Positions 1,581 through 64,000 of a DNA stretch of 64,000 bases are shown here, in pieces. The DNA comes from Patescibacteria group bacterium (lineage in GTDB: Bacteria; Patescibacteriota; Minisyncoccia; Phycocordibacterales; JACOZG01). The first letter of the stretch is position 1; each line of letters starts with the position of its first letter. The position numbers were made by a program, and so were the translations under genes. Location: positions 261,373-325,372 of the forward strand of contig JBBTQW010000002.1 in assembly GCA_038065495.1 (NCBI GenBank). Reading direction: 5' to 3'. The notes beneath the pieces were generated by a model, which saw only the letters and a program-made list of their open reading frames with translations, was not told the origin of the DNA and searched no databases.

Positions 1581-1593
1581 ACTGGAACCCATA

Positions 1594-8137: not shown

Positions 8138-8140
8138 AAT

Positions 8141-8533: not shown

Positions 8534-8535
8534 TA

Positions 8536-9474
8536 CTAGCTAGTTATATGCTCGCTTATGATGTAGCCTGGCTCTTTCCCCGACTGGCGCACAACCAGTT
8601 CGCCCAAAAAGCCAGAAACAAAAGACTGGAAACCAACCACCACCAAGAGCACACCAAGAAGTAACAATGGCCTGTCGCCAACAAATTCATCTACAACGAT
8701 GATCAGCCAACTCATGTAAGCAAGGATGACAAACCCGATAAACCCTACTACAAAACCAAAGAAGCCGAACAAGTGCATCGGTCGATTACTAAAACGCCCC
8801 AAAAGAACAATAGATATAAAATCAAAAAAACTCTTGAAGAACCGGCCAAAATTGCCGTATTTACTCTCACCAAACTCTCGCTTGCGGTGATGCACCTTCT
8901 GCTCACTTACTTTATAACCCTTGCTGGCTACAATCGCCGGAATATACCGATGATGATCGCCGGTGAGAACCAAACTTTTTGCGACTTCACTCTTATACAA
9001 TTTATAACCGCAGTTCATGTCGTGGACATAAGCTCCTGTCACCAAGCCAGTTATCCAATTCGCAATTTTCGACACTAAGCCCTTACTCATCCCATCTAGA
9101 CGGTTTTGCTTCCAACCAACAACCAAGTCACCACCTCGTTTCACCTCGTCGAGAAAATTGGGAATTTCTGCCGGATCATCTTGTAAATCGCCGTCCATTG
9201 TAATGATATACCTGCCACGTGCCTGATCGAAACCCGCCTGCAACGCTTGCGATTTACCAAAGTTCCTGGCAAAACGAATAATCGTGGCTGGCTTGAACTG
9301 AGTTAAGACTTCAAATGTGTTATCACTAGAACCATCGTCAACAAAAATAATTTCAAAACTTTTGTCTAACTTCGTCAGCACACTAAGCAGCTCAGCATGA
9401 AGTTGGGGAACAGATTCCGCTTCGTTATAGACCGGAATAACCAGTGATAATTCCAGACTCGAGTCATTATTCAT
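8536..9474 (-). CDS. GT2 polyprenol-phosphate glycosyltransferase (DPM1/GtrB/ArnC-like) with C-terminal TM helices.
   Basis: LSLVIPVYNEAESV...FVDDGSSD...DGDLQDD (DxD motif), two C-terminal TM segments, 312 aa. Confidence 0.8.
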   Translation of the reverse strand: MNNDSSLELSLVIPVYNEAESVPQLHAELLSVLTKLDKSFEIIFVDDGSSDNTFEVLTQFKPATIIRFARNFGKSQALQAGFDQARGRYIITMDGDLQDDPAEIPNFLDEVKRGGDLVVGWKQNRLDGMSKGLVSKIANWITGLVTGAYVHDMNCGYKLYKSEVAKSLVLTGDHHRYIPAIVASKGYKVSEQKVHHRKREFGESKYGNFGRFFKSFFDFISIVLLGRFSNRPMHLFGFFGFVVGFIGFVILAYMSWLIIVVDEFVGDRPLLLLGVLLVVVGFQSFVSGFLGELVVRQSGKEPGYIISEHITS

Positions 9475-9506
9475 GAGTCATATTAAATCACAAAAGAATG
9501 TTGCTA

Positions 9507-10667
9507 TCAACTCTGGCCGCGAGATCCGCGCAAGTCACTAATCAGCCTGTCGATTGACTCCTGCACCGACAAGACGGAGATAGACAACACTTGCCGGAGA
9601 GCTTCTTCTTGATTATATGATCTAGCATTTAAAATCGAAAGTTCTGCTCTAACCCTACCGGGAGGCAAAACATTGCGATGAATAAACCCGCGCGGTGGTT
9701 GCACGCGTTCGTCCACCGGGCCAACAATATTTATGGTTGGGATATCAAATGCTTCCGCAATATAAATCGGCCCGGTATCGACACTGATAAACAGATTAAC
9801 TTTCGAGATAAAGGCCTTCAACTCATCAAGATCAAATCGACCAACTGTATTTATTATCGCCACTTTTTTCTTAGAGTGCCCGATTAATTCTTTTGCTTTT
9901 TCGTTGTCTCCCTTACCACCGGTGATGATTATTTTTGCATTATATTTCTCAACCAGATAATCAGCCACCGTGGCAAAACGTTCCGTCGGCCACTCCTTTA
10001 TTTTATTCCCCGCCGATGGTGATATTGCCACTACAAAATCTCTTTTAAAGTTAATATTTTCGTCAACAAAAAACTGTTCTGTTTTTTTATTAGCCCACTC
10101 AGAAAATCCAAGTTGTTTCTTGGTATCTTCGGAAAAAACGCCCAGGGACTCAAGGGCTCTGAGCCTTTCTCGAGGAGCGTACTCTCCGATCTGATAGGGA
10201 AAAGTGCACATGAGATGCCGAAGAATTCTGTATGGCCACGTCTCGGCTGGGGAAAAACCGCCTTGCACCACCGGCACCACTACGAGAGGAATGCCGGCCA
10301 AGTATAATAAAGCGGCAGAAACAAACGATGGTCCAGTAACTAATGCCGCATCAGCATGAGACTCTCCGGTACGCGCTACCGCTCGCGGCTCTTCCAGATC
10401 AAGATACTCGTCCACCAGGCCACTGTCCGCAAAGAGCGGCCGATGAAGCTTGCTTGTGCCCGCCACAATTAGCCGCGCCCCTGGCAAGTGCGCCCGGACA
10501 GCACGCAAGACTGGCGTAACGCAGACTACATCGCCTAGTTTTCCTGTCGGCACTACGATAATTCTGGAGACTTGAATGGGAGGCCTGTTAGCCTTACCAG
10601 AAATCAAAGCCCGAAGCAGACAGCCGAGCAAAAGCAAAAACCGGTAAGTTCTGCTCGAGCGCCTCAT
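9507..10667 (-). CDS. GT9-family glycosyltransferase (heptosyltransferase-like).
   Basis: KLGDVVCVTPVLRAVR near the N-terminus and FISVDTGPIYIAEAFDIPTINIVGP near the C-terminus match the GT9 RLGDV.../VGNDSGPMHLAAA... signatures. Confidence 0.65.
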   Translation of the reverse strand: MRRSSRTYRFLLLLGCLLRALISGKANRPPIQVSRIIVVPTGKLGDVVCVTPVLRAVRAHLPGARLIVAGTSKLHRPLFADSGLVDEYLDLEEPRAVARTGESHADAALVTGPSFVSAALLYLAGIPLVVVPVVQGGFSPAETWPYRILRHLMCTFPYQIGEYAPRERLRALESLGVFSEDTKKQLGFSEWANKKTEQFFVDENINFKRDFVVAISPSAGNKIKEWPTERFATVADYLVEKYNAKIIITGGKGDNEKAKELIGHSKKKVAIINTVGRFDLDELKAFISKVNLFISVDTGPIYIAEAFDIPTINIVGPVDERVQPPRGFIHRNVLPPGRVRAELSILNARSYNQEEALRQVLSISVLSVQESIDRLISDLRGSRGQS

Positions 10668-11839
10668 GTTGATCGCTTAATGAAACTCGCGATATTGGCA
10701 CCGCGACTCTCCCAAGTATATTTGTTTTTAGTAACCATTGCTTGAGCCGCTAGCCTATTCCCCAGTTCACCGTCATCGTAAATCTCCAGAATCGCCTTAG
10801 CCCAGCCACTTGCATTATTTTCGCCAACAATCAGTGCGTCTAGATTATTAGTTAAAACTTCCTCAATACACTCTGCCCGACCAGCAATAATCGGCCGACG
10901 AGCGGCCAGCGCCGGGAACATCTTGGCCGGAGAATCACCAATTAAATCTTTTTTTCGCTTCGGAATGAGGACCACATCAAAGGCCTGAAGGTAGTTTGGA
11001 ATTACGCTTCTCTCCTGCCAAGGCACAATGATAACACGACTAGACACATCAAATTCTCTAGCAATCTGCCGCAGCCACTCCGCATTGCCGCTAATCTCTC
11101 CTACAATCACCGCAGAAACATCAACTGGCAAATCAGCAAGACTTCTCACAATATCGTCCACCTCATAATAATCATTATTAGGGTTAGCCCCTATCACGCC
11201 AGTATAACCTACCAAAAAAGCATTCTGTGGTAACGACAACTGTTGCCGTAGCGTCTCTCTGTTTTTAGAATAATCAAACCAAGAGTCTTCAGCAGCGCTG
11301 CAAAGTGAGACGAGAATATTATTATTGGCCTTCTGGTAATAATTTTTAAGTCCCGAACTAATTGCCACTACGCCATCGGCCCACTGCACCGCCAGCTTAT
11401 TAAACCACTGCTTCGATCGTCGTTCCAAAACTGAGTGAATCTCAAAAAAAACTTTTTTTCGCAAAACAAGTTTGACCCACAAAGCTGCAAAAACTAGTGT
11501 GGAATCCCGAAAATACAGAGCATTAAATTTTCTGGCTTGAGCTGACAAAAAAAACATCAAGCTAACGTTGGCTGAGAAAAATGCTATCAGCTCATACCAT
11601 TTTTTGCCAGAACAAGGAGAAGTTGTATCCGTTGCCCCCAAACACGTTACTAAAAATGGTCGGAGAACCGCCATTCTCTCAAAGAAGGCTGCATCGCTTA
11701 CTACTTTTTTATTAGTAGTCACAAGCCTGACTCTCAAATCCTGCTCAGCATTGAGGGCCTCACAAGTTTTAGCCAGATTATAAACATTAGTTCTACCAGA
11801 CAAAAGATTAGCTCGTGAAATATGGATGATATCAGTCAT
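10664..11839 (-). CDS. GT4-family glycosyltransferase.
   Basis: GT-B C-terminal domain: VGYTGVIGANPN...VVLIPKRKKDLIGDSPAKMFPALAARRPIIAG. 391 aa. Confidence 0.6.
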   Translation of the reverse strand: MTDIIHISRANLLSGRTNVYNLAKTCEALNAEQDLRVRLVTTNKKVVSDAAFFERMAVLRPFLVTCLGATDTTSPCSGKKWYELIAFFSANVSLMFFLSAQARKFNALYFRDSTLVFAALWVKLVLRKKVFFEIHSVLERRSKQWFNKLAVQWADGVVAISSGLKNYYQKANNNILVSLCSAAEDSWFDYSKNRETLRQQLSLPQNAFLVGYTGVIGANPNNDYYEVDDIVRSLADLPVDVSAVIVGEISGNAEWLRQIAREFDVSSRVIIVPWQERSVIPNYLQAFDVVLIPKRKKDLIGDSPAKMFPALAARRPIIAGRAECIEEVLTNNLDALIVGENNASGWAKAILEIYDDGELGNRLAAQAMVTKNKYTWESRGANIASFIKRST

Positions 11840-11862
11840 TTATTTATTAAGCACCCGCTCGT

Positions 11863-12777
11863 CTACTTAGCCACAAGAGAGCGGAAACTGTTTACGATCT
11901 CCTCACCGCTCTTCTCTTGGTACGCCTCAAGGTGCATCTTGCGTTGTCTCTCCTGGAGATAATGAACAAACAAGATACTATCATAAGACTCTGGTGCAAT
12001 GCGAGCCCCGATTTTACCAAAATATTGCGGCAAATACCTCTCGCAATTAGTCCGCAATAAACCGATACGGCCTTCGGACTTGAGAAACAAATTAAAAAGA
12101 TCGAAACCAGGCAATTTGCTTATACCTACGTGGTCATAATCAATCAAATTAATCTGCTCTCCGTAAATCAGCACATTATCAAGAGTAAAGTCTCCATGCT
12201 GGACCAATACAGGTAATTTGACATTAGAATCGAAAGCTAGATGCTTGTAATAATTGCTCAACACAAGCGCTGAGTCTCCCGATAATCCTAACGTTTTGAT
12301 TGTCTTATTAGCCAGATCAGTGATATCTCCAGAGCCCCAAGTCTTCTCTGTGCTAGTTGCTAGATGTGATTGCCAGCCAATATATTTCTCAATCACAAGA
12401 GCAGTGTCTCGCTCCAACAACGAGAACTTCACCCCTGGGCAAACGGATTCGAGAGAAAAAACCAAATTATCCTTATCGTGCAGGTAGAGCGGCTTGGCAA
12501 ACATGTCGGCATAGACACTGCCACGCACCCCCTCAGCCAATGACTGAAGATTTGAATAATTATTCCTGATCACCTCGCCCGCGGAATAAGTACGTGTAGT
12601 TTTAGCACAAATCGTTGGTCTTCTTTCTCCCTCTTCAAACACGAACACGAGCACCTTGCTTTCTTCCGCTCCATACTCCGGCTCCGGCGTACTCATCTTC
12701 ATAAACGACAAACTAGAGCCTGGTTTTCGCAACCAGTTAGGATTTTCCCCCATCACTTGTTTAAGCCAGGAAATCAT
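11863..12777 (-). CDS. APH/choline-kinase-like phosphotransferase (protein-kinase fold). Putative sugar or alcohol kinase.
   Basis: Brenner motif VQHGDFTLDNVLIYG followed by INLIDYDHVG. 304 aa. Confidence 0.6.
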   Translation of the reverse strand: MISWLKQVMGENPNWLRKPGSSLSFMKMSTPEPEYGAEESKVLVFVFEEGERRPTICAKTTRTYSAGEVIRNNYSNLQSLAEGVRGSVYADMFAKPLYLHDKDNLVFSLESVCPGVKFSLLERDTALVIEKYIGWQSHLATSTEKTWGSGDITDLANKTIKTLGLSGDSALVLSNYYKHLAFDSNVKLPVLVQHGDFTLDNVLIYGEQINLIDYDHVGISKLPGFDLFNLFLKSEGRIGLLRTNCERYLPQYFGKIGARIAPESYDSILFVHYLQERQRKMHLEAYQEKSGEEIVNSFRSLVAK

Positions 12778-13721
12778 TTTTTAACCACCATGCCAAAGCT
12801 GAAGAAAAAATACCGGTAAACACGAAGCAAGAGCGGCCAGCGCGCCAAGAATCTAGCCACTTTTCTCTTCCAGCCGATAGAAGGCAAGAAAGTTCTAACA
12901 GCATAAGCGAATGCATTGATATTATCATATGGAATCATTAGTCTTGGGAGATTATAGCCCGGATAAGTGAGATAGAAGGTGGTATCAGCAAATCCACCCT
13001 TCTGCAACAATTTATCATAGCCACTTTTGGTATAAGTAAAAGCTTGATAACGTTTACCTCTCCGGAACAAAGTATAAATATTAGCCAACCAACGTGGCAA
13101 GTAACTAGTGAAGCGCAAACCACTATGATCAATGGCACGCAGGTAGGCAAAAGCGAATCGGTTCTCGATGCCAATATAGAGGTGCCCACCGGGTTTCAAT
13201 AATTCGTGGCAAATCTTGAGGCTAGCGATCTGGGCTTCGGAAGGATTGCTAAAACGATCTGTAACACCCACCCACTCCAAGACACCATTCATCACAATCA
13301 GATCGAAACTTTCTCTCTCAAACGGTAAATCAAAAATATCGCCAACGCAAACCTCGATATTGTTCAGATTTTCTTTTTCTGCTCTAAGCTTAAGAAACTT
13401 CATCCGCAAAAAAGAATTATCCACGGCAATTATTTTTTTAACTGCTCTTGCCAAGGGAACACTAATCCGCCCCATACCTGCGCCAATGTCGAGGACAAAA
13501 GACTCGCCAGACAAGGGAACAACAAAACGCCAATCTGCCCGGTTTTCCTCGAACGTGGAATCGAACCTGTCTCGATAGCGCGCCTTAAATTCGTCCCAAC
13601 CCTTTTCTTCTATAATCGCCAATGCTTTTTCTAATTCTTCTTTGGGTGCCTTGCCCCAGTAGCGATCGTCAGAAAAAAAAGGTATGCCCTCGATGACTTT
13701 TACTGGAGCTTTATTATTCAT
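12774..13721 (-). CDS. Class I SAM-dependent methyltransferase.
   Basis: Motif I VLDIGAGMGRISVPLA and an acidic motif II. 315 aa. Confidence 0.7.
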   Translation of the reverse strand: MNNKAPVKVIEGIPFFSDDRYWGKAPKEELEKALAIIEEKGWDEFKARYRDRFDSTFEENRADWRFVVPLSGESFVLDIGAGMGRISVPLARAVKKIIAVDNSFLRMKFLKLRAEKENLNNIEVCVGDIFDLPFERESFDLIVMNGVLEWVGVTDRFSNPSEAQIASLKICHELLKPGGHLYIGIENRFAFAYLRAIDHSGLRFTSYLPRWLANIYTLFRRGKRYQAFTYTKSGYDKLLQKGGFADTTFYLTYPGYNLPRLMIPYDNINAFAYAVRTFLPSIGWKRKVARFLARWPLLLRVYRYFFFSFGMVVKK

Positions 13722-14775
13722 GATTAATATTTTTCTTAAAATAATTGGCTAAGTCATGGGCAAAAATATCGGCCGAGCAAAATTCCTCAGCAAACTCTCT
13801 GGCCGCTCGCCCCAGACGACGACGCAAAGCTTCATCGTTCCACAACAAATTAACTGCCTCTCGCAAAGCTCCCTCACTCCCTTCCGGCACCAACCAACCG
13901 TTCTCACCATGTGTAATATAAGCAGAAACTGTTTCAGTTCTAGTCGCAATGATCGCTTTACCCATTGCCAGAGATTCGACCAAAGTAGAGCAACCCATCG
14001 CATCATTTAGCCCGCCTTGCATGTTTAGTGGCAAGATGACTAATCTCGCGCGTTTGTATTGCTCACGCAGTTCAACTGGCGAAAAGTCATAGCGCTTAAT
14101 GTGCCGTCCTGCTGCACCAAACTTGTTTGGATCCCACTCCCGAGCAGTAATCTTGATCTCTGGAACCAGCCCGTGGGTGGCTCCTGCCAAAGTCCGCAGA
14201 TCACGACCAGGATCACGACCAGGACTTAGAGCAAACTCCTCTTCTTTTAGCTCAAAATCTGGTGTAAAAAATCGAGTATCCACACCCAAATGCAAAAATT
14301 CTATCTTATCCGCAAGCTTGGGAAACATGTCCCTCATGTCCCTTGCTTCTCCCGGAGAAATGGTAATGATTCCGTCTGATCGCCCAACCATAAATTTGAG
14401 TGCCCTCTGCTTCAGTCTCACGCCAGTCCCCATCATACCCTTGAGACCGTAATCGAAGATGACCCAGCGAGGGCGCTTCAGTCCGAGAAACGCTTTGACA
14501 AAAAGGGATCCAAGAGCGGTAGAAGTAAAAACAAAATCGTACTTTCTCATCTTTAAGAAGAGCGGCAAATGAATATAATGCACATTGAGGACCCGAGTAC
14601 GGAGAAAGCGCGCAAACCAAACGGGGACAAACTGCTCTATTTCTAAGTATTCAGCCTTAACACCGTGAGAAGCGAGACGAAATAGGCCAAAGAAGTGACC
14701 ATCATGATCTCGCTTCTGGACAATTTTATCTTCTAGCCCAACACGAACACGATTGAATAAATAAAGTATCTTCAT
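13714..14775 (-). CDS. GT4-family glycosyltransferase.
   Basis: STLVESLAMGKAIIATRTETVSAYITHGENGWLVP matches the GT4 E-x7-E region. Confidence 0.7.
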   Translation of the reverse strand: MKILYLFNRVRVGLEDKIVQKRDHDGHFFGLFRLASHGVKAEYLEIEQFVPVWFARFLRTRVLNVHYIHLPLFLKMRKYDFVFTSTALGSLFVKAFLGLKRPRWVIFDYGLKGMMGTGVRLKQRALKFMVGRSDGIITISPGEARDMRDMFPKLADKIEFLHLGVDTRFFTPDFELKEEEFALSPGRDPGRDLRTLAGATHGLVPEIKITAREWDPNKFGAAGRHIKRYDFSPVELREQYKRARLVILPLNMQGGLNDAMGCSTLVESLAMGKAIIATRTETVSAYITHGENGWLVPEGSEGALREAVNLLWNDEALRRRLGRAAREFAEEFCSADIFAHDLANYFKKNINHE

Positions 14776-15800
14776 GCGGTTAGAAGCAATTTAATCAAGC
14801 TACCCAAATCGTGTTTATTTACTAATTGTAGTATAACGCTGGAAAGATCTTCTGATTTATCTTCAGTTTTTTTGAAAATCTTTTCTAAATAATCAGCAAG
14901 CTCAATGGAGGTAAAATCTCCCGGCAAAACAAAGCTCTCTGGCAATTGATTGTGGAAAAAAGGATTGACCACCAGCGGAATACTACCACAAGCCATCGCC
15001 TCAAAGATCGTCTTATCCATACTCCCGGCAGCGGTTAGATTAACATAAAGCTCGTGCTCGCGATAGAGTTGACGCGCTTGCTCTTGCGTTACCGAGCCGA
15101 TAAATTTAACTCTATCAGTTAGTTCGTATTCCGACACTTTATTTTTAATTTTTCTCTCGTATTCAGTATCTCGAGGCAAAGCCTCGCCGGCAATCGTGGC
15201 AAAAAACTGGACATTAAGCTTTTGCAATTCATTGAGTGCGTCAATAAATATTTCTACTTTCTTGACCGGCGCAATCCGGCCGAGAAATAAGATAGAACTT
15301 GTTTTTTTAATCACCGACGAGTCCGGTGTGAAAAAGTCAGTATTAATCCCAACTGGCATAATTTCTGTTTTGCTAAATTGGGCCGTGTAAGACTGTGGCG
15401 AGGTACAGAAGACTTTATCTGACAAATAAACGGCCAACCGCGTGAAAAAATTTCCTGTTGCATGATTCCGCCACATTGCCACTTTCTTACCCCACAATTT
15501 CCAGAACAAACTTCCCAGCAAAACATACTCCTGATTCATGTGCACGAAAACTCTGTCGTAATTCTTCCGCTCTTGCCAGATATATTTATAAAAATTCTTG
15601 AGATATTTTAGCTTAGACTCGCCATTTTCTTTCCCCAGTGAGAGCACTTTCACATTCGCTGGCAGATTATATCTTCCCCGCTCCAGACAAATTACTGTGA
15701 TAAATTCGCAATGCTTAGCAAATTCCTCAATCCAACGATGGAAAAATCCCAGCACCGGGTTATCCCGATCAACCGCTTGAGTAATAATCAGTAATCTCAT
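14772..15800 (-). CDS. GT4-family glycosyltransferase.
   Basis: SMDKTIFEAMACGSIPLVVNP. 342 aa, ATGA-coupled on both sides. Confidence 0.7.
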   Translation of the reverse strand: MRLLIITQAVDRDNPVLGFFHRWIEEFAKHCEFITVICLERGRYNLPANVKVLSLGKENGESKLKYLKNFYKYIWQERKNYDRVFVHMNQEYVLLGSLFWKLWGKKVAMWRNHATGNFFTRLAVYLSDKVFCTSPQSYTAQFSKTEIMPVGINTDFFTPDSSVIKKTSSILFLGRIAPVKKVEIFIDALNELQKLNVQFFATIAGEALPRDTEYERKIKNKVSEYELTDRVKFIGSVTQEQARQLYREHELYVNLTAAGSMDKTIFEAMACGSIPLVVNPFFHNQLPESFVLPGDFTSIELADYLEKIFKKTEDKSEDLSSVILQLVNKHDLGSLIKLLLTA

Positions 15801-16804
15801 AAATTTTCGATAATCGCCTGCGTGATTTCTCCCACCTGATAGCCGACGATTCTCGTTCCCACTTCCCTTGCTACACCCACATCGGTAGAGATAATTTTAC
15901 AACCAGCGGCTTGCGCCTCCATCAACGTCAAGCCATAGCCCTCAAAGAACGAGGTGAGCAGAAACAGATCAGCCGTTTTGTAATAAGTCGCTAAATTAGT
16001 TTGCCACGGTTCAAAAATTACATTATTCTCGAGCTTTAATTTTTTAACTACAAACTTGAGATTATCTTCTTCTGCGCCAGCACCAACGATAACCAAGCCA
16101 GCTTGCGGTTTTACTTTAATCACCTGCTGCCAAGCCTTCAGCGGCAAGTAGATATTTTTTTCCGGTTCTAATCGGGAAGCGATCAGAGCTATTTTGCTAA
16201 ACTCTGGATATTTCTGATGTAGATCAACCGTAATTTCTGCTTTTTTGATCTTATCAGTATCAACAAAAATTGGTTTAACCGTAATTTTACTTTCTACAAT
16301 TCCCCACTCCCGCACTAGAAAATTTTTAATCCTCTCAGAAACTACGCGAATCTGATCCGCGCGCGGCAGCACAAATTTAGCAATTTTTTTTCTGATTTTA
16401 TTACCAAAAGTATAAGCAAAATACTGACTGCCAATATCCGTGTGCACTTGAATTTCTAAATTAAGAAAATTAATCTTGCGCGCGCAACGCTTGAGCCACC
16501 AGCCGGTGAGACCGGTCAAGAACGGGTCTTGGCACGTCAGATTAGTAATCACCTGTTCGCTAATTATTTTTCCACCCAGCGCGATAGCATCGAAAATATA
16601 GAACCATTTGCTACTAGAATTCGTTGAATAAACGAAACAGTTCTCTGCGATCTTCTCTGGCTTAAAATTAAAATCTCTGGTGGCAAAGACAATAATGTGA
16701 GTTTCGTCACGCTCGCGCGCATAATCAATCTGCCGCGCACGAACGGCGCTGTCTGCTTTAAATAAATTTCTGTCTGTGCTGATAGAAAGTAGCTTGATCA
16801 TGAT
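15797..16804 (-). CDS. GT4-family glycosyltransferase.
   Basis: EGYGLTLMEAQAAGCKIISTDVG. The likely start is MIKLLSIS at 16804. The ORF track gives a longer form, ending at 16867. Confidence 0.65.
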   Translation of the reverse strand: MMIKLLSISTDRNLFKADSAVRARQIDYARERDETHIIVFATRDFNFKPEKIAENCFVYSTNSSSKWFYIFDAIALGGKIISEQVITNLTCQDPFLTGLTGWWLKRCARKINFLNLEIQVHTDIGSQYFAYTFGNKIRKKIAKFVLPRADQIRVVSERIKNFLVREWGIVESKITVKPIFVDTDKIKKAEITVDLHQKYPEFSKIALIASRLEPEKNIYLPLKAWQQVIKVKPQAGLVIVGAGAEEDNLKFVVKKLKLENNVIFEPWQTNLATYYKTADLFLLTSFFEGYGLTLMEAQAAGCKIISTDVGVAREVGTRIVGYQVGEITQAIIENL

Positions 16805-17820
16805 AGAAATTCTGTCGCAATTTCTCGCCAAGTATGCGTAAAAGTAAAACTCTGCGCTCGCCCACAAGCTGTTCTGTAATTTTTAGCATCAGCCAGCCAA
16901 GTAATTTTCTCAGCAATATCTTGCTGATTCTCCGGATCAACCCAGATCACCGCCTCACCCAAGCGCTCCCGCAAACCAGTTTCTTGCGTCAAGATCACCG
17001 GCTTGCTGAATCTGAGCGCATCTAGAACCAGATTAGGGCTGATATCGCCAAGCGACACAAGAATCACCGCATAACAACTTTTTATTTTCTCCAAAAATTG
17101 CTGATAACTCGCATTTTCCAAATCAAGTTTGAGATCTAAACTTGCTAAATTATTTCTGGCTAGAGTAAAAGCTTGCTCTAATTTATCTAAATTCTTCCAC
17201 TTCAACTTTCTCGTCCCGGCAATAAAATTTTTCTGTTTCGCTACTTCTGATTCAGCTTTCTCGCCAAAATAATTCTCTATAATCTTTACTTCACAGTTAA
17301 CTTTGGCATCATCTAACAGATAAGCCCCGCGCCAAATTTCTCTCTGCCAGCTGGTGCTAAAAACTAAAATATCACAATTCCAGACCGTCCACTTGCTTAG
17401 TTTAAAAATAATTTTCTCTTTTAGATTTAACTTAATCTCTCCAGATTTAATCTTTCCGTAAAACTCGCGCAACAAAACCAGATTTCCCGTCCGCTCCACG
17501 TAACCTTCCCAGAGAAAGTCGCCACCAGTTCTGATTATTATTTTCTGATTCAAGATCTTTGCCGCAAGCACACTCGGCCAAGCCACCGAGAAAGTATCTA
17601 AAGCTAAAATAAAATCTGGTCTAAAAAACAAACTCGCAAAAAATACTTTCCAGAAAAAATAAAAGTGCCTGATGCCCGTTGGCAAATAATTTTCTAGTTT
17701 GTAAGTTAGAACTCTCACAGAGTGATTTAGGCTAACAAACTCCTGTTCTAGATTCTTAGCATATTGCGCTGGTCCGCCGATCTGTGGCGGATAAATACCG
17801 GTCGCGATAATTATCTTCAT
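16798..17820 (-). CDS. GT-B glycosyltransferase, GT1/GT4-like.
   Basis: N-terminal MKIIIATGIYPPQIGGPAQYAKNL is a GT-B donor-less N-domain motif. 340 aa and very AT-rich. Confidence 0.55.
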   Translation of the reverse strand: MKIIIATGIYPPQIGGPAQYAKNLEQEFVSLNHSVRVLTYKLENYLPTGIRHFYFFWKVFFASLFFRPDFILALDTFSVAWPSVLAAKILNQKIIIRTGGDFLWEGYVERTGNLVLLREFYGKIKSGEIKLNLKEKIIFKLSKWTVWNCDILVFSTSWQREIWRGAYLLDDAKVNCEVKIIENYFGEKAESEVAKQKNFIAGTRKLKWKNLDKLEQAFTLARNNLASLDLKLDLENASYQQFLEKIKSCYAVILVSLGDISPNLVLDALRFSKPVILTQETGLRERLGEAVIWVDPENQQDIAEKITWLADAKNYRTACGRAQSFTFTHTWREIATEFLS

Positions 17821-57877: not shown

Positions 57878-59134
57878 ATGATGGATCTCAAAACAATGCG
57901 CTCGGCTCTGGAACAACTGGAAGAAGAGCGTGGTATCCCTAAAGAGAAAATCCTAAGCGCGATTGAAGACGCGCTAATTGCCGCGTATAAAAAAGATTAC
58001 GGTCAGAAGGACCAAATAGTGCGCACCAAGTTTGATTACGCTACCGGCAAAGTAGACTTTTATCAGGTCAAGATTGTGGTGGATGAGAGTATGCTCTTGA
58101 GCGAAGACGAATTAAGCAAAAGTGAAAATCTGGATGAGGTGGAAGCTGGCAAGACAGAACAAACAGAGTTAAAGCCTGATGAGAAAGTAAAATTTAACGA
58201 AGAGCAACACATCATGCTCGCGGATGCGAAGAAAATAAAAGCTGACGCTAAGCTGGGCGATGAACTAATTTTCCCACTCGAGGCCAAAGATGATTACGGT
58301 CGCATCGCGGCGCAAACGGCCAAGCAAGTGATTATCCAGCGCTTGCGCGAGGCCGAGAAGCAGTCGGTACTCACCGAATATTCTGGCCGTGAGGGTGAGA
58401 TTATGAATGGCAAAGTGCAGAAGATGGAACGCGGCAATGTGTTTGTAGATCTCGGACGCACTACCGGTCTACTCGCTCGTGAAGAGCAAATCCCGGGCGA
58501 ATATTATCGCCAAGGCGAACGCATCAAGACCTATCTCTATGATGTGGAAGAAACGCCAAGAGGAATCAACTTGCGTCTCTCGCGCGCGCATCCTAAATTT
58601 GTGGAAAAATTGTTTGCCGTGGAAGCGCCAGAGATCGCCAGCGGCGTGGTGAGCATCCGGGCCATTGCTCGCGAGCCGGGCGCGCGGACCAAGATTGCCG
58701 TCCACTCTAGCGACCCAAATGTGGATCCAGTTGGATCCTGTGTGGGCCAGCGCGGCGTACGCGTGAATACAGTAATCTCCGAACTCGGCGGCGAGAAAAT
58801 TGATATTATTGAGTGGAGCGAGGATCCCGAAACTTTTATCTCCAGCGCGCTCTCACCGGCGAAAATTAACAAAGTCACACTATTTAAAGAAGATAACCGC
58901 GCGCAGATTGAGGTGGACGCGGATCAGTTCTCACTAGCCGTCGGTCGCGGTGGGCAGAATGCTCGCCTCGCCGCGCGTCTCACCGGCTGGAAAATCGACA
59001 TTATTCCCCCAGCTTCGATGACGGAGACGAAAAAAGCTGAAACTCCAGAAGTAACTCCAGAAAATGTTGCAGAAGTAAAAACTGAAAGTTCTGAAATTGA
59101 AAGTGAGAAGACCGAAACAGAGAAGTCAGAATAA
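57878..59134 (+). CDS. nusA: Transcription termination/antitermination factor NusA (short form, acidic tail, no AR domains).
   Basis: N-terminal domain, S1 and two KH domains (GxxG motifs VGQRGVRV and VGRGGQNARLA). 418 aa. Confidence 0.88.
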   Translation: MMDLKTMRSALEQLEEERGIPKEKILSAIEDALIAAYKKDYGQKDQIVRTKFDYATGKVDFYQVKIVVDESMLLSEDELSKSENLDEVEAGKTEQTELKPDEKVKFNEEQHIMLADAKKIKADAKLGDELIFPLEAKDDYGRIAAQTAKQVIIQRLREAEKQSVLTEYSGREGEIMNGKVQKMERGNVFVDLGRTTGLLAREEQIPGEYYRQGERIKTYLYDVEETPRGINLRLSRAHPKFVEKLFAVEAPEIASGVVSIRAIAREPGARTKIAVHSSDPNVDPVGSCVGQRGVRVNTVISELGGEKIDIIEWSEDPETFISSALSPAKINKVTLFKEDNRAQIEVDADQFSLAVGRGGQNARLAARLTGWKIDIIPPASMTETKKAETPEVTPENVAEVKTESSEIESEKTETEKSE

Positions 59135-59208: not shown

Positions 59209-59721
59209 CTACTTCACTTCAACGAAGCAGAGCAGAATACCCCCAACCCACTCGGTTTCTCCGTCAATAACCATCGACTGAAAAACTGGATTGCTTTGAA
59301 TCTTCGTACTGGGCAGGTTGTTATGATCATTTGAATCATAAGAAAGGGCGTGATAGCCGTGGTAACAGCTTGAACACTCCTCAAAGTTTCCCTGCTCTTT
59401 GAGCAAGTCCAAACCAAGTTGACCCAGCAAGACACCTCCTTTGAGGTTAATGAACGCGAGGTGCTCTTGGCAAGTACTAGTCAGACCATTTCTAGAGTGG
59501 CAGTAGCCACTCACACTAAACTTACGTCCGTCGGGGTGCGTAACAATGCCGAGATTAAGATCAGCCACAAGCGCGAACCTATCCGCCAGAGGGATGGATT
59601 CATCGATGACCTTCTGCAAGAAGTCACTGATCTTTCTGGGATCTCTCTTGCCGTCGAGCACAAGCTTATTAACACTAGCTTGCACTTTCCACAAACGTAC
59701 GATTTCGGAGTCACTACTCAT
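59209..59721 (-). CDS. Hypothetical Cys/His-rich protein (170 aa).
   Basis: CHSRNG...CQEH...ECSSCYHGYH may form a metal-binding cluster. No family recognised. Confidence 0.45.
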   Translation of the reverse strand: MSSDSEIVRLWKVQASVNKLVLDGKRDPRKISDFLQKVIDESIPLADRFALVADLNLGIVTHPDGRKFSVSGYCHSRNGLTSTCQEHLAFINLKGGVLLGQLGLDLLKEQGNFEECSSCYHGYHALSYDSNDHNNLPSTKIQSNPVFQSMVIDGETEWVGGILLCFVEVK

Positions 59722-59929: not shown

Positions 59930-60463
59930 ATGAACTTATGGCACGATATTGAACCGGGGACGAAAGACGCGATTAATGTGATCGTGGAGATTAATAAAGG
60001 CAGTAAAAATAAGTATGAGGTGGATAAAGAAACAGGCCTGATTGCGCTAGATCGAGTCTTGCACAGTGCCCAAGATTTCCCTTGCGATTACGGCTTCGTG
60101 CCCCAAACACTCTGGGACGACAATGATCCGGTAGATGTGATTCTGCTCACGACTAATCCCCTCGTGCCGGGCTTGCTAGTGCGAGCGCGGCCGGTCGCTA
60201 TTATGAATATGATTGACTCTGGCGATGCGGATGACAAGCTCATCGCCGTGCCAGTGGACGATCCAAGATGGCAGAAAGTGCAAGATCTCGCTGATCTGAA
60301 CCCGCATACGCTGAAAGAGTTGCAACACTTCTATGAGACTTACAAGCAGCTGCAAGGCAAAGAAGTGAAGATTAACGGCTTTAAGGGCAAAACAGAAGCC
60401 GAGCAAGCCTTTGCTCGCGGCTGTGAGCTATATGCCCAGAAATTTAGTGTTGAGAAAAAATAG
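59930..60463 (+). CDS. ppa: Inorganic pyrophosphatase (family I).
   Basis: VIVEINKGSKNKYEVDKETG, DNDPVDVILL, and DDKLIAVPVDDPRW. Confidence 0.88.
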   Translation: MNLWHDIEPGTKDAINVIVEINKGSKNKYEVDKETGLIALDRVLHSAQDFPCDYGFVPQTLWDDNDPVDVILLTTNPLVPGLLVRARPVAIMNMIDSGDADDKLIAVPVDDPRWQKVQDLADLNPHTLKELQHFYETYKQLQGKEVKINGFKGKTEAEQAFARGCELYAQKFSVEKK

Positions 60464-60519: not shown

Positions 60520-61209
60520 ATGCGCAAGTTATTAGTGTTGTTGCTTGTAAGTTTGTTTTGTTTGCCAGTTCTAGCTAGCGCCGAAGAGGGTTATCTCAAG
60601 ACGCTCAAGCCAATCCCCGCCGAGCGCGAGGCAAAGCTGAAAGAGATGAAAGCGAAACTAGAGGCGAGCCGGCAAGAAATAGAACTAAAAAAGAAAGATC
60701 TGCTGGAAAAACGCGACGCGAACAAAGAAGCGCGTGATGTGCGGCAAGAAGATCGTCAGGAGGATAGACAAGAGAAGCGCGCCGGTCAGATTGGTAATTA
60801 TGTTGAGAAAATCACAGAGCGCGTGAGCTTGGTGTTGAAAAATCTGGAGAATCTGGATAACAAGCTCAAGACTCATCTGGATAAGCTCGCCAGCCAGGGA
60901 ACGGATGTAACGAGCTGGAAAGCGAGCGAGGCAAAACTAGCTGCTGATATTGCGGCGGCCAAGGCGGCGCTGGCTGACTTACCAAGCAAACTAGCCACAC
61001 TAACCGCAACGGAAAAACTGACGGTAACGGAAGCCAAGACTGTGCGCGAGGCGGTGGCTAGCGTCTTGAAAATCGTCAAGACCATTGGCCAAGACTTGCA
61101 CAAACTGGTGCAGGAGATCCGTGCCGCCATGCCTAAGCCGGCCAACACACTTAAGCCAAGCGCGACGGAAGCTAGAACCGCTTCCCCAGCGGCGGTGGAA
61201 ATGCAGTAG
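60520..61209 (+). CDS. Secreted coiled-coil, charged protein.
   Basis: Signal peptide MRKLLVLLLVSLFCLPVLASA. An RQEDRQEDRQEKR repeat. Predicted alpha-helical. Confidence 0.5.
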   Translation: MRKLLVLLLVSLFCLPVLASAEEGYLKTLKPIPAEREAKLKEMKAKLEASRQEIELKKKDLLEKRDANKEARDVRQEDRQEDRQEKRAGQIGNYVEKITERVSLVLKNLENLDNKLKTHLDKLASQGTDVTSWKASEAKLAADIAAAKAALADLPSKLATLTATEKLTVTEAKTVREAVASVLKIVKTIGQDLHKLVQEIRAAMPKPANTLKPSATEARTASPAAVEMQ

Positions 61210-61236
61210 AAATTAGAAAAATAATAAACATAAAAC

Positions 61237-61542
61237 ATGAACGGAGACAACACTATGGATCAGAACAACAACTCCAGCGGCTCGCTGGTGGGCTCGATCA
61301 TCGTCGTGATTATCTTGATCATCGGCGCGATTTATTTGTTTAGTTCTAAAACTAATGCGCCGGTAATGCCGGCCAGCGAAACTGGCTTGAGTAGTGAGCA
61401 AAATATGCCGGGCACTACGGAAACAGTCACGACAGAAATTGTAACGGAAGAAACGCTAAGTGCGGACGCCGATATGAGCGCGCAAGAAGCGGCAGAATTG
61501 GAAACTAGCATTAACACGCTCAACCAAGAAGCGGGTTTGTAA
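61237..61542 (+). CDS. Small single-pass membrane protein with an acidic, T/E-rich tail.
   Basis: LVGSIIVVIILIIGAIYLF TM helix. 101 aa. Confidence 0.45.
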   Translation: MNGDNTMDQNNNSSGSLVGSIIVVIILIIGAIYLFSSKTNAPVMPASETGLSSEQNMPGTTETVTTEIVTEETLSADADMSAQEAAELETSINTLNQEAGL

Positions 61543-61604
61543 AACTCGCCAGAAATGCTTTAATTAGAGGCCGGCTTTAAGCTGGCTTTTAATTTGTTAA
61601 AAAT

Positions 61605-62561
61605 ATGGAACTAAAAATCACTAAATTAGAGAATAGCGAAGTGGAACTGACAGGCGAAATTGCCGCGGAAAAATTTGAAAGCTTTAGAACCAGAGCGCTA
61701 GCTAAGCTCAACCAAGAAGTGAAGATAGACGGCTTCCGAACCGGACACATTCCGGCGGATATCTTGGCGAGCAAAATTGGCGAAGAAAAGATTTTACTCG
61801 AGATGGCGGAACTAGCGCTACAAAATATTTATCCCGAAATTTTGCAAGCAAACAAAATCGACGCACTTGGCCGACCAGCGATTACCCTCACGAAAATTGC
61901 AAAAGGCAATCCGCTCGGTTTCGTGATCAAGACGGCAGTTAGACCAGAATTTACTCTGCCGGATTACACAAAATTAGAGAAACCAGAGACAGAAATAATT
62001 CCGGAAATTACAGAAAAAGAAGTAGACGAAGTGGTGGAAAATATTAAGAAGAATCAGGAAACGCAAAAAATAGAACCAGAAAAAATTACAGAAATCACAG
62101 CCGAACAGCGCGAAATAATTAAGCAGAACTTGAAGCTAGAACGCGAGCGGAGAAACAGAGAAAAAACGCGACTGAAGATTATGGATAATTTGCTAGAACA
62201 AGCAAAAATTACTTTGCCAAATGTGCTGGTAGAAAGTGAATTAGATAAAATGGCGCATGAGATGAAGCACCAGATCGAGCAAATGGGTCTCAAGTTTGAG
62301 GATTATCTCAAGCACATCAAGAAAGAAGAAAAAGATTTGCGCGCGGATTGGCAGAGCGAAGCGGAAAAGCGTTTAAAGACCGGTTTGCTGATTGCCGAAA
62401 TTGCTAAGCAAGCGAAACTAGAACCAAAACCTGAAGAAATCGAGAAAGAGGTGAAACATTTGCAAGAACACTACAAGGATGTCCCGGCCGAGAATTTGCG
62501 GCATTATGTGAGCGAGATGCTCTTGGTAGAGATGGTTTGGAAATTATTGGAAAATAAATAA
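61605..62561 (+). CDS. tig: Trigger factor lacking the FKBP/PPIase domain.
   Basis: N-terminal ribosome-binding signature GFRTGHIPADIL (GFRxGxxP). 318 aa. Followed by clpP. Confidence 0.65.
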   Translation: MELKITKLENSEVELTGEIAAEKFESFRTRALAKLNQEVKIDGFRTGHIPADILASKIGEEKILLEMAELALQNIYPEILQANKIDALGRPAITLTKIAKGNPLGFVIKTAVRPEFTLPDYTKLEKPETEIIPEITEKEVDEVVENIKKNQETQKIEPEKITEITAEQREIIKQNLKLERERRNREKTRLKIMDNLLEQAKITLPNVLVESELDKMAHEMKHQIEQMGLKFEDYLKHIKKEEKDLRADWQSEAEKRLKTGLLIAEIAKQAKLEPKPEEIEKEVKHLQEHYKDVPAENLRHYVSEMLLVEMVWKLLENK

Positions 62562-62595
62562 AGACCGCTGGGCGTACCATGCGGTCTTTCTGTGG
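62555..62595. terminator. Hairpin between the convergent tig and MYG1-like genes.
   Basis: agaccgc-(12-nt loop)-gcggtct forms a 7-bp stem flanked by U-rich (plus) and A/T-rich (minus) runs. Confidence 0.45.
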
Positions 62596-62610
62596 TTGGA
62601 GTCGGGGAAT

Positions 62611-63603
62611 TTATGCCTCGACTGCAACCGGAACTGGTGACGAGTTCGGTACCGAAGTAGAACCTTCGGCAAAAGCTCGCTTGACGCAAGCCACGATCTC
62701 ATCGAGAGAGAGCTTGCTCGGTGGGACATCTGTGGCCGTGAGACTGCCATTGAACAGGCCAATCGCGGCCAACCACCAACATTCGGCGCCCGCCACTCGA
62801 CCCTCGGCCAACAAGGCTTGAAAATCAACAGACTCACAGCCGTGCAGGCTTCGTTCGGCCAAACGAATTTGCCGGGCGATCTCTGGCAATCTCTGCTGTG
62901 CCGGACCACGGACGAAAATGTAGTGGTGGCCAGTATCGGGATTGCTCTGTACTACGGTGACACTGCCGCCCTTAACGAAATGGCGATAGCCGGCCGCCCG
63001 ATTGGTCTCTGGGTTAGCGGTGGTGACCACAACCAATGTGTGTGACTTGCCACCAATCTGGGCCAGTCGTTCTGGAAGAACGAACCCGTCCAGAAAATTG
63101 AGCGCCGCCAAGAAAGTCTCCTGCTCCTTCAGTTTGGCATCGAGAGCGTCGAAGACCCAATTCATTACCCATTTTGGATCCATCCCAGACTTGTGCATCG
63201 ACTTAACGATCGAGCCCAAGCTGAACGCCCCAAAACCGGCCTCAAGATCCTCTTTTCTCACATGTTCAAGGATCATGTCCAGCTCTCGCCGTTCCAGCAA
63301 ACCCAGATGCCGAGCAACCAGCGTGGCGGTGCACTCACCCACCTTGCGGCTGCTTCCGTCTGCCGGATGTTCATCGAAGCGGCCACCGCCGATACCGATG
63401 AACAATGTTCCCTCGGCCTCATGCTCCTGCCACGACTTCCCGTCCGGCGGCTGATTCCCATCGCCCCAGAACTCCACCGGAGCTTCTGGAACTCCTGGGA
63501 AAAGCTTCTGCCCGAAAACCCACAACAGCCAAATGGCCACAATCTCATCGAGATGAGGCCAACAGTGAGTCACAATCCTGTTAACCGTAAATGGTTTTGC
63601 CAC
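62611..63603 (-). CDS. MYG1/UPF0160-like metal-dependent hydrolase. GC-rich, antisense insert between tig and clpP.
   Basis: RIVTHCWPHLDEIVAIWLL resembles the MYG1 GTHxGxFHxDExLAxxLL motif. GIGGGRFDEH resembles MYG1 GG.YDP..RFDHH. Likely GTG start at 63603, with AGGAG 6 nt upstream. The ORF track extends to 63735. Confidence 0.5.
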   Translation of the reverse strand: MAKPFTVNRIVTHCWPHLDEIVAIWLLWVFGQKLFPGVPEAPVEFWGDGNQPPDGKSWQEHEAEGTLFIGIGGGRFDEHPADGSSRKVGECTATLVARHLGLLERRELDMILEHVRKEDLEAGFGAFSLGSIVKSMHKSGMDPKWVMNWVFDALDAKLKEQETFLAALNFLDGFVLPERLAQIGGKSHTLVVVTTANPETNRAAGYRHFVKGGSVTVVQSNPDTGHHYIFVRGPAQQRLPEIARQIRLAERSLHGCESVDFQALLAEGRVAGAECWWLAAIGLFNGSLTATDVPPSKLSLDEIVACVKRAFAEGSTSVPNSSPVPVAVEA

Positions 63604-63783
63604 GAGAAACTCCTCTTGTTTGATTGACGAAGATCGAGATTTAGAGAGCTTAGGCAAAAACTGCCCAATACCACTCTCAACCCCAATTATAGCAAATACA
63701 CAGAGCTTGTCAAGGGCTAGGCTAAAAAGGTTCAACTAGGGTCACATTTGCAAAATTAGGGGAAATTCGTTAAGATTCGCCAC

Positions 63784-64000
63784 ATGTTAATCCCAACTGT
63801 CATTGAGAAGTCCCCTTTCGGCGAGCGTGCTTACGATATTTATTCGCGCTTGTTAAGAGATCGAATAATCTTCCTCGGCGGGCCAATTGACGATCATGTG
63901 GCCAATATCATCATCGCGCAACTCTTGTTTCTGGAAAGTGAAGGTCCGAAGAAAGATATCACGATGTACATCAACTCTCCCGGCGGTAGCGTGAGCGCTG
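63784..64000 (+). CDS. clpP: ATP-dependent Clp protease proteolytic subunit. The N-terminal part runs off the window.
   Basis: [72 protein letters not shown]. Confidence 0.9.

Follow-up and report, generated by a model that had tools for sequence, protein, structure and literature searches.

Besides the canonical DHH/DHHA1 phosphoesterases treated below, the protein analysed here comes closest to two described systems. MYG1 is a DHH-type 3'-5' RNA exonuclease, the DHH motif of which lies at residues 106-108 in the human protein (PMC6582341). ChrB_C (PF09828) is the domain with which the regulator of the chr operon senses chromate, a sensor rather than an enzyme, and R180, R187 and H229 of ChrB (O. 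tritici numbering) are essential to chromate sensing (PMC3817168). A direct profile comparison of ChrB with MYG1 gave no signal, and a literature search found no paper tying ChrB to DHH and none on the protein family described below.

The stretch of DNA that was analysed (hereafter the window) comprises 64,000 nt of the forward strand of a Patescibacteria group bacterium (GCA_038065495.1, JBBTQW010000002.1, 261,373-325,372). The initial annotation had placed a minus-strand gene of ~330 aa between tig and clpP, which is confirmed by the open reading frame and by the profile matches of the flanking genes. The features of this region are the following.

61605..62561, plus strand: tig, trigger factor of 318 aa with N and C domains only (TIGR00115, 188 bits; PF05697, PF05698)
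62561..62588, no strand assigned: GC-rich hairpin AAAGACCGC...GCGGTCTTT where tig and the DHH-like gene converge
62611..63603, minus strand: DHH-like/ChrB_C-like coding sequence of 330 aa (GTG 63603..63601, stop 62613..62611; from the ORF, the Shine-Dalgarno sequence, homologue N-termini and promoter position)
62668..63078, minus strand: DHHA1-like domain of the C-terminal part (residues 176-312), carrying R247, E250 and N285-G286-S287 (from full-length Foldseek matches and conservation)
63079..63603, minus strand: N-terminal alpha/beta domain and long linker helix, residues 1-175 (hhalign to ChrB and MYG1; domain model pLDDT 92.6)
63367..63396, minus strand: motifs II/III, G70-I-G-G-G-R-F-D77-E78-H79, aligning to MYG1 D-V-G-G...R-Y-D-H-H
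63544..63570, minus strand: motif I, THCWPHLDE (T12-H13-x3-H17-x-D19-E20), conserved family-wide and aligning to MYG1 T-H-x4-H-x-D-E
63610..63614, minus strand: Shine-Dalgarno sequence AGGAG, read from the sequence, with a 6-nt spacer to the GTG
63686..63713, minus strand: sigma-70 promoter TTGACA-16 nt-TGnTATAAT, 12/12 matches with extended -10
63784..64000, plus strand: 5' part of clpP, which runs off the window (ATG at 63784; PF00574, 1.7e-23)

The longest minus-strand form of the reading frame (62611..63735) encodes 374 aa and adds exactly the 44 residues reported earlier, although it begins with TTG and not with ATG. The GTG start is accepted because it has three independent supports: the Shine-Dalgarno sequence, the fact that 21 homologues start 5-8 residues ahead of the T-H motif, and the position of the promoter, which falls inside the 44-codon TTG extension. 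The AGGAG-6 nt-GTG start put forward in the initial annotation is thus borne out, whereas the end coordinate given there, 63784, is the first base of clpP, since the clpP ATG sits at that position. The promoter (63713..63686) is the sole 12/12 sigma-70 site within 61400-64000 and leaves a predicted 5' UTR of ~75 nt, with a predicted TSS at about 63679; a search of 61000-64000 against Rfam for a riboswitch or ncRNA in this leader returned zero matches. The hairpin folds at -20.7 kcal/mol (z -3.3, with 0/200 shuffles equally stable) and is a candidate bidirectional terminator, its U-rich tail being better on the minus strand. With its promoter, SD-GTG start, 330-aa coding sequence and hairpin terminator, the interval is one autonomous transcription unit.

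Over its N-terminus, the ClpP encoded in the window shares 70-93% identity with that of relatives. In nine of these, tig is followed by clpP with gaps of ~20-700 nt; a DHH-like homologue is present in 0/9, and no remnants of such a gene were found in their tig-clpP gaps. Other genes are present in the junction in some relatives. Since all nine examinable relatives run from tig to clpP without it, the placement of the DHH-like gene is lineage-specific, and the earlier view that it interrupts a junction normally free of it holds. The tig-clpP gap is permissive for gene placement.

Whether this placement reflects horizontal acquisition, as the initial annotation had argued, is a separate matter. 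The GC content of the gene is indeed clearly above that of tig (0.562 vs 0.415), and it ranks 2/57 in the window for GC (z 1.8) and 7/57 for GC3 (z 1.3); its codon-usage bias has a z of 0.15 and its delta* a z of 1.0, while among the 27 genes of 700-1400 nt it ranks 2/27 for codon bias and 3/27 for dinucleotide signature. The elevation is thus real but inside the range of the window: the composition lies in its upper tail and is no outlier, and GC1 and GC2 are high because the protein is rich in Gly, Ala, Arg and Pro. The flanks contain no integrase, tRNA or mobile-element signature, only short chance direct and inverted repeats. With such modest composition, homologues set among housekeeping genes in 11 contexts and no mobile-element signature, horizontal acquisition is unproven, and nothing shows an import from outside Patescibacteria. 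A recent transfer from another Patescibacteria lineage, as opposed to relocation or ancestral presence, would account for a self-contained unit equipped with a perfect promoter and a terminator of its own, for the GC, codon-bias and dinucleotide ranks, for a position unique among relatives and for the long branch on which the window copy lies, its best homologue being 44% identical. However, the z-scores and the amino-acid content just mentioned, as well as the clean flanks, speak against it, no close donor was found, and 44% is comparable with the best matches of tig itself (54%, 48% and 43%), as expected if the gene descended vertically in a lineage that has been sparsely sampled. Such a transfer can be entertained, although we hold it to be doubtful.

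The 330-aa protein received no family assignment from Pfam, NCBIfam, PHROGs, PADLOC or the PDB, searched with the single sequence and with a profile; EGFR-kinase matches in the PDB were rejected as a short chance similarity to the motif I helix. The protein falls into a large family of prokaryotic proteins without a Pfam or NCBIfam model, with 225 homologues at E<=1e-3 in a word-index search and at least 2,023 representative clusters (50% identity) at E<=1e-3, or 1,072 at E<=1e-30. Close homologues are all uncharacterised proteins, and the organism named by the source is a member of Patescibacteria four times and WOR-3 once. The premise that the gene belongs to a mostly eukaryotic family, sporadic in bacteria and hence likely to have been transferred, does not apply because the family is large and prokaryotic and those members that have a named source come, as the host does, almost exclusively from Patescibacteria. 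At 11 homologue loci all contexts differ, each lying among housekeeping genes, and no conserved gene neighbourhood that might hint at a substrate was found across them.

Two motifs dominate the conservation of the N-terminal domain. In motif I, H13 is found in 245/261 members, H17 in 234/261, D19 in 238/261 and E20 in 237/261; the T, H, H, D and E of the THxxxxHxDE pattern described earlier are all there, but the spacing between the histidines is x3, one residue shorter than claimed. The GGGRFDEH motif is present as described, at residues 72-79, and in motifs II/III G70 is conserved in 252/261 members, D77 in 254/261, E78 in 239/261 and H79 in 253/261. Canonical DHH residues are rare at these positions (D17 in 10/261, D70 in 4/261, H78 in 5/261). 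A basic Cys4 tail ends ~88% of the members, full-length variants without it numbering 32/261.

The full-length AlphaFold (AF2) model is confident (pLDDT 89, pTM 0.85). All its PDB matches at E<=1e-3 in Foldseek are DHH/DHHA1 enzymes (the PAP phosphatase 8a8k, GdpP and family II PPase), followed below these by TM1595, DhhP, RecJ, AlaRS C-Ala and Cdc45; the DHH/DHHA1 matches have E-values of 3e-5 to 1e-3 and probabilities of 0.87-1.0, with low TM-scores of ~0.3. In BFVD, 12 of the 20 matches at E<=1e-3 are named, and all of these are DHH-type (DHH phosphohydrolases, exopolyphosphatases, NrnB), the remaining eight being unnamed or ORFans; RecJ comes next at E ~1e-2. Canonical DHH/DHHA1 proteins (NrnA, GdpP, DhhP, family II pyrophosphatase, the archaeal PAP phosphatase 8a8k and RecJ) are the only significant full-length structural matches, and they appear to have in common with the window protein a two-domain architecture with a linker helix, although the latter has no PF01368 or PF02272 sequence match. 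The PDB sequence file includes crystal structures of MYG1 (24ah and others); none came up among the Foldseek matches, the library of which may not contain them. When the N-terminal domain was modelled alone, no significant PDB fold match was obtained (best E 0.4), so that profile alignment and the fold matches of the full-length model are what support its DHH assignment. The likeness of the C-terminal domain to DHHA1 domains, and to the DHHA1-like C-Ala domains of AlaRS that also match it, is the more robust part of the fold assignment. The canonical DxD, motif II D, DHH and GGGH correspond in the family to HxD(E), G, DEH and NGS. A metal site, if there is one, would be non-canonical because an invariant Gly takes the place of the motif II Asp, and D-E-H that of D-H-H.

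Of the named families, ChrB_C is the closest to the N-terminal domain and the best supported. The domain aligns with the ChrB C-terminal domain over 130 columns (hhalign 95.7%, E 1e-8), which establishes homology at the profile level. The window protein itself has no PF09828 match at E<=10, and the family consensus scores 20.5 bits against a gathering threshold of 25 bits; three members (P0073, P0097 and P0081) pass that threshold with 28.9, 27.6 and 26.0 bits, and 41/70 match PF09828 at E<=10. A tblastn search of 7.3 Gb of plasmids with the N-domain consensus gave 13 matches, ten of them ChrB-domain genes, and in 4/4 fetched plasmid regions a chromate transporter gene (chrA) adjoins the ChrB-domain gene. 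T12, D19, D77, C91 and D119 are common to ChrB_C and the window protein, and the block C-x-x-x-L/V-x-A-K-x-L-G-x-x-D-P-A-L...I-V-x-x-x-D-L is common to ChrB_C and the family.

That the protein is a non-catalytic ligand-binding domain or sensor, in which the polar cluster binds a metal or a small anion for regulation, would be in accord with this kinship, with the shared residues and with the fact that the same domain senses chromate in ChrB (PMC3817168). However, the oxyanion-binding residues are not kept, since the columns of the sensing arginines R180 and R187 are H13 and E20 in the family, and H229 falls at R86/K87. The His ligands H13 and H79 are not conserved in ChrB, which has an invariant Arg in the first of these columns and a hydrophobic residue in the second, while the H17 column is variable. 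The window protein also lacks the DNA-binding domain ChrB_N, a DHHA1-like domain of a kind typical of enzymes following instead, and neither the ORFs within ~5 kb upstream of the gene (on the other side clpP runs off the window) nor the 11 homologue contexts include a chromate transporter. Finally, the His/Asp/Glu pattern agrees with the catalytic motifs of MYG1 at each position. A purely sensory role thus seems unlikely.

The window copy is a divergent member of its family. It departs from it at 20 of the 84 positions that are conserved at >=85%, six of these in the missing Cys4 tail, which 67/69 aligned members have, and it carries A196 and G205 in place of the D and R typical of the family (D196A, R205G). 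All N-domain motif residues are kept, as are R247, E250, N285, G286 and S287. The losses of the tail, D196 and R205 could mean a reduced or changed function. They are also what would be seen in a decaying, functionless remnant of a family gene, a reading that we consider very improbable in view of the intact 330-codon frame with its consensus promoter, SD and terminator, the retained motifs of both domains, the recurrence of tail-less full-length members in the family and the confidently predicted structure.

The relation to MYG1, which the initial annotation had taken for family membership, is a remote one that concerns the N-terminal domain. A bacterial and vertebrate MYG1 profile, strengthened by six bacterial MYG1 proteins from plasmids, aligns with this domain over 118 columns (hhalign 68.6%, E 4.6e-5, score 44.3), while controls (30 column shuffles and a reversal) give scores <=23 and E>=0.04; a vertebrate-only profile gives 2.4% probability and E 0.019 against the family. 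Cross-searching the family and MYG1 with HMMER yields 2-7 bits, in register and not significant, and the C-terminal halves show no profile signal (hhalign E 0.13, 6 columns). The N-terminal domain is thus a remote homologue of the MYG1 DHH domain, the link being weaker than that to ChrB and above the controls. The size and two-domain layout are comparable, and MYG1 motifs I (T-H...H-x-D-E), II (x-V/I-G-G), III (R-F/Y-D-x-H) and IV (D...G) align in register. However, motif I (T-H-x-G-x-F-H-x-D-E in MYG1, T-H-C-W-P-H-L-D-E here) is one residue shorter between its histidines, the motif II Asp of D-V-G-G is replaced in G70-I-G-G, D-H-H-Q becomes D77-E78-H79-P80 and motifs II and III lack the 6-residue loop that separates them in MYG1. 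The C-terminal H-x-S-G-F-I-G-G of MYG1 is also absent, the family having L-N-G-S-L-T-A, and the Cys4 tail of most family members is not found in MYG1. The window protein has no MYG1 match in Pfam (E<=10) or NCBIfam (E<=1), and of 70 family members none matches PF03690, which true MYG1 proteins carry, or an NCBIfam MYG1 model, with E-values of up to 10 allowed. Because no PF03690/MYG1 match was obtained in Pfam, NCBIfam or PDB sequence searches, the protein is not a member of UPF0160; what survives of the earlier assignment is the distant kinship of one domain, membership itself being largely refuted. A true MYG1/UPF0160 orthologue, i.e. a 3'-5' RNA exonuclease, imported horizontally from outside the phylum into the tig-clpP junction can be dismissed as extremely improbable despite the likeness of motifs I and III, the N-domain profile score, the GC rank and the absence of the gene from the junction of nine relatives, since bacteria do have true MYG1 proteins, which share 30-36% identity with the gibbon MYG1 query P0264, whereas BLAST and HMMER detect no similarity of the family to MYG1, and the named sources of its close homologues are Patescibacteria or WOR-3.

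On balance, we favour the view that the autonomous unit encodes a divergent member of an unnamed DHH-like family, in a lineage-specific placement and acting as a metal-dependent phosphoesterase, which is also the most likely function that we infer for the family. In the N-terminal domain H13, H17, D19, E20, D77, E78, H79 and D119 sit at DHH motif I, III and IV positions and may form a putative cluster. The substrate would be a nucleotide or short nucleic acid held in the inter-domain cleft, and the basic Cys4 tail may be an added zinc- and nucleic-acid-binding element. In the window copy the substrate-binding half would have been remodelled, because the tail, D196 and R205 are lost. Its tig-clpP position is a matter of lineage-specific placement, not demonstrably of horizontal import.

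More tentatively, the family may be an undescribed branch of the DHH superfamily that bridges MYG1-type exonucleases and ChrB_C, which are otherwise unconnectable by sequence; the signature of this branch would be T-H-x3-H-x-D-E, G-x-G-G-G-R-F-D-E-H and N-G-S, together with the Cys4 tail. If so, the ChrB sensor would have evolved from a metal-dependent phosphoesterase, with the His/Glu ligands swapped for oxyanion-binding arginines, and the three-way profile link between ChrB_C, the family and MYG1 points to an origin of chromate sensing in this domain that can be tested. For the window the result is mostly deflationary: what had looked like a eukaryote-like MYG1 import is a native-looking member of a 'dark' family. 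The family is worth some attention in its own right: it comprises thousands of clusters, lacks a model in Pfam and NCBIfam and combines a confidently predicted fold with an unusual, strictly conserved His/Asp/Glu set. Where small Patescibacteria genomes have few recognisable nucleases or nanoRNases, a conserved enzyme of DHH-like type could reasonably be proposed for a step in RNA or nucleotide turnover that is missing. Were the family such a branch of the DHH superfamily, Patescibacteria would also have a widespread uncharacterised nucleotide- or RNA-processing enzyme.

The antisense gene between tig (trigger factor) and clpP is real, since the interval contains one minus-strand ORF (62611..63735; 374 aa counted from the first TTG) with trigger factor and ClpP genes on its flanks. 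The features of the junction are as follows.

Ending at 62561, plus strand: tig (TIGR00115, 188 bits; Trigger_N and Trigger_C)
62561..62588: hairpin past the stop of the studied gene, dividing it from the convergent tig (-20.7 kcal/mol, z -3.3)
62611..63603, minus strand: the studied gene, 330 aa from its GTG start
63713..63686: perfect sigma-70 promoter (TTGACA-16 nt-TG-n-TATAAT, 12/12 matches)
63784: ATG of clpP (ClpP PF00574, 1.7e-23)

The in-frame GTG at 63603, which has AGGAG upstream at a spacing of 6 nt, is the favoured start in view of this Shine-Dalgarno sequence, of the N-termini of 21 homologues, which start 5-8 residues ahead of the T-H motif, and of the position of the promoter, which falls within the 44-codon extension of the long ORF. 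The initial annotation was therefore right about the start and about the length of the extension, although the latter begins with TTG rather than ATG, and 63784, which it took as the end of the gene, is actually the first base of clpP. The NCBI record (P0001, 'MAG: hypothetical protein, Patescibacteria group bacterium', 348 aa) starts at an intermediate TTG devoid of a Shine-Dalgarno sequence. With its own promoter, start signal and the hairpin between the convergent genes, the studied gene is a complete, autonomous transcription unit. As for clpP, its ATG lacks a Shine-Dalgarno sequence (63740-63786) and a weak -35/-10 pair (TTGCAA-17 nt-TAAGAT) stops 8 nt before it, which suggests a leaderless or near-leaderless mRNA. 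The region upstream of clpP is also AT-rich and devoid of a Shine-Dalgarno sequence in the relatives with adjacent tig-clpP that were looked at (loci L004-L006), and clpP transcription may thus be independent of tig in this group.

Sequence beyond tig is available for nine relatives, whose tig is 22-54% identical, and in each of them tig is followed by clpP on the same strand. The two genes lie about 20-60 nt apart in five, including the closest (L012), and about 570-700 nt apart in the remaining four; a homologue of the studied gene is absent from every one of these gaps. At a further locus (L015, tig 39%), the roughly 4 kb downstream of tig lack clpP. The gene is thus not syntenic in all relatives and its placement is lineage-specific. 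The junction is itself a recurrent insertion site, since a different antisense gene, encoding an ORF6N-domain protein (PF10543, 2e-31), occupies the roughly 700-nt gap in two relatives (L013 2986-3531 and L014 1308-1853, minus strand; tig 48%). An ORF6N gene is also found upstream of tig in L005, and the 570-600 nt gaps of L004 and L005 contain no convincing gene. The wider block nusA-ppa-x-x-tig-clpP is conserved in L006, where nusA directly adjoins ppa, the inorganic pyrophosphatase gene. Between these two genes (57878-59134 and 59930-60463, in the plus-strand block), the host has a second antisense ORF (59209-59721, minus strand, 170 aa, no Pfam match), so this conserved block carries two antisense additions. 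The ppa-tig interval (60520-61542) contains two small plus-strand ORFs, one of 229 aa (no Pfam match above threshold; by eye, coiled-coil-like with a hydrophobic N-terminus) and one of 101 aa (no Pfam match; by eye, one hydrophobic stretch). Both show weak conservation (34-35% identity) ahead of tig in L018, the closest metagenomic relative. The trigger factor (61605-62561, 318 aa) has Trigger_N and Trigger_C but no FKBP/PPIase domain, as in the Pfam-tested relatives (L012 129-1049, 307 aa, slightly incomplete match; L004 4992-6050, 352 aa), and this looks like a lineage-wide trait.

Horizontal acquisition into the junction was originally suggested, and the absence of this placement from the nine relatives fits that idea, but the evidence for transfer is weak. 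Although the GC content of the gene is high (0.562, rank 2/57 genes, z 1.8), GC3 (0.610, rank 7/57, z 1.3) and dinucleotide signature (z 1.0) are less deviant and the codon-usage distance is ordinary (z 0.15), and there are no flanking repeats, tRNA or integrase. The window is uneven in GC (about 40-44% in 1-17000, about 47-53% in 18000-64000), which makes the background for judging one gene heterogeneous. The homologues occur in eleven contexts, all different, among housekeeping genes, and the best is 44% identical, which is comparable with tig's own best matches. The available genomes do not separate horizontal transfer inside the phylum from relocation in the genome itself or from ancestral presence followed by loss elsewhere. 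Acquisition of a eukaryote-like MYG1 is unsupported, considering the modest composition z, the lack of flanking mobile signs and the absence of any PF03690 match.

Searches of Pfam, NCBIfam, PADLOC, PHROGs and PDB sequences, permissive thresholds included, returned no match for the protein. It is not an orphan: a word-index search found 225 homologues of ~350 aa, all unnamed (named sources being Patescibacteria, Brennerbacteria, Pacebacteria and one WOR-3), and, when the cluster representatives were searched exhaustively with a profile, 2,023 clusters matched at E<=1e-3, of which 1,072 pass E<=1e-30. No member matches an NCBIfam model. The studied protein is 37-44% identical to its homologues and about equally distant from all. 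It belongs, as a divergent member, to a large family of uncharacterised two-domain DHH-like proteins.

A confident AlphaFold model (70-sequence alignment, pLDDT 89, pTM 0.85) predicts two domains. Its significant Foldseek matches in the PDB are exclusively DHH/DHHA1 proteins, namely the archaeal PAP phosphatase (8a8k, E 3e-5), GdpP and family II pyrophosphatase; next come TM1595, DhhP, RecJ, the DHHA1-like C-Ala domain of AlaRS and Cdc45. Among 20 BFVD matches at E<=1e-3, each of the 12 with a name is a DHH-type enzyme (DHH phosphohydrolases, exopolyphosphatases, NrnB), while eight are unnamed or ORFans; RecJ comes lower (E about 1e-2). TM-scores are low (about 0.3) and rmsd large, as expected of hinged two-domain proteins. 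When the N-terminal domain is modelled by itself (pLDDT 92.6), nothing in the PDB matches it significantly (best E 0.4). The model-based evidence for the fold is therefore solid as regards the overall architecture and the DHHA1-like C-terminal domain, and weak for the N-terminal domain alone. Solved MYG1 exonuclease structures (24ah, 24bl and others) are present in PDB sequences and absent from the Foldseek matches of both models, being either missing from the library or poorer matches than other DHH enzymes.

Judging from profile comparisons, the nearest named relative is ChrB_C (PF09828). Weak matches occur in 41/70 family members, three of five scanned individually exceed the 25-bit cut-off, and alignment of the family with six plasmid ChrB proteins gives 95.7% probability (hhalign, E 1e-8, 130 columns). 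A tblastn search of 7.3 Gb of plasmids with the N-domain consensus gave 13 matches, each weak (E 0.4 to 10), 10 of them annotated as ChrB-domain genes, and a chromate transporter gene adjoins all four regions fetched. The ChrB residues indispensable for sensing chromate (R180, R187 and H229; PMC3817168) fall opposite H13, E20 and R86/K87, and the same pocket is thus Arg-lined in the sensor, whereas it is His/Asp/Glu-lined in the family. In addition to full-length ChrB, plasmid chr loci (L022 378-848, L025 64-519, L023 5164-5312) encode proteins of ~150 aa next to chrA that consist of ChrB_C alone, which shows that the domain homologous to the N-domain of the family also functions as a module on its own.

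The proposed MYG1-like identity holds in part. The family matches a vertebrate-only MYG1 profile with an E of only 0.019, and adding six bacterial 'MYG1 family proteins' yields 68.6% and E 4.6e-5 over 118 columns (hhalign); reversed and 30 column-shuffled controls never score >23 or reach E <0.04. T12-H13/H17-x-D19-E20 lies opposite T-H...H-x-D-E (motif I is indeed present, with spacing T-H-x3-H-x-D-E instead of x4), G70-x-G-G opposite D-V-G-G, R-F-D77-E78-H79 opposite R-Y-D-H-H, and D119 opposite the D-x-x-D-N-G motif. The C-terminal halves give no signal, and ChrB and MYG1 compared directly show no connection. The register and controls, taken with the missing C-terminal signal and PF03690 match, point to remote homology of the DHH domain, the level at which the motif-based intuition was right, and not to UPF0160 membership.

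Across 261 family sequences, H13, H17, D19, E20, G70, D77, E78, H79, C91 and D119 are near-invariant in the N-domain, as are D196, R205, R247, E250 and N285-G286-S287 in the C-domain. A few members have canonical DHH residues (D at 17 in 10, D at 70 in four, H at 78 in five), which fits an origin from a DHH-type site. Since MYG1 is a DHH-motif 3'-5' RNA exonuclease (PMC6582341), the conserved pocket suggests that family proteins would be metal-dependent phosphoesterases whose active site lies in the cleft between the domains. In 229/261 members (about 88%), the C-terminal end carries a basic Cys4 tail (C-x2-G-x-C...C-x-W-Y...R-C-R), which plausibly binds zinc and nucleic acid. The studied copy lacks this tail and has A196 and G205 where the family has D and R, but keeps all N-domain motif residues; it is divergent, possibly altered in function and not obviously dead. 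On the boldest reading left standing, the family would link phosphoesterases of the MYG1 type with the chromate sensor ChrB. The initial observation is confirmed and its interpretation partly supported, and the family fits best as a new variant along a continuum of DHH, MYG1 and ChrB_C.
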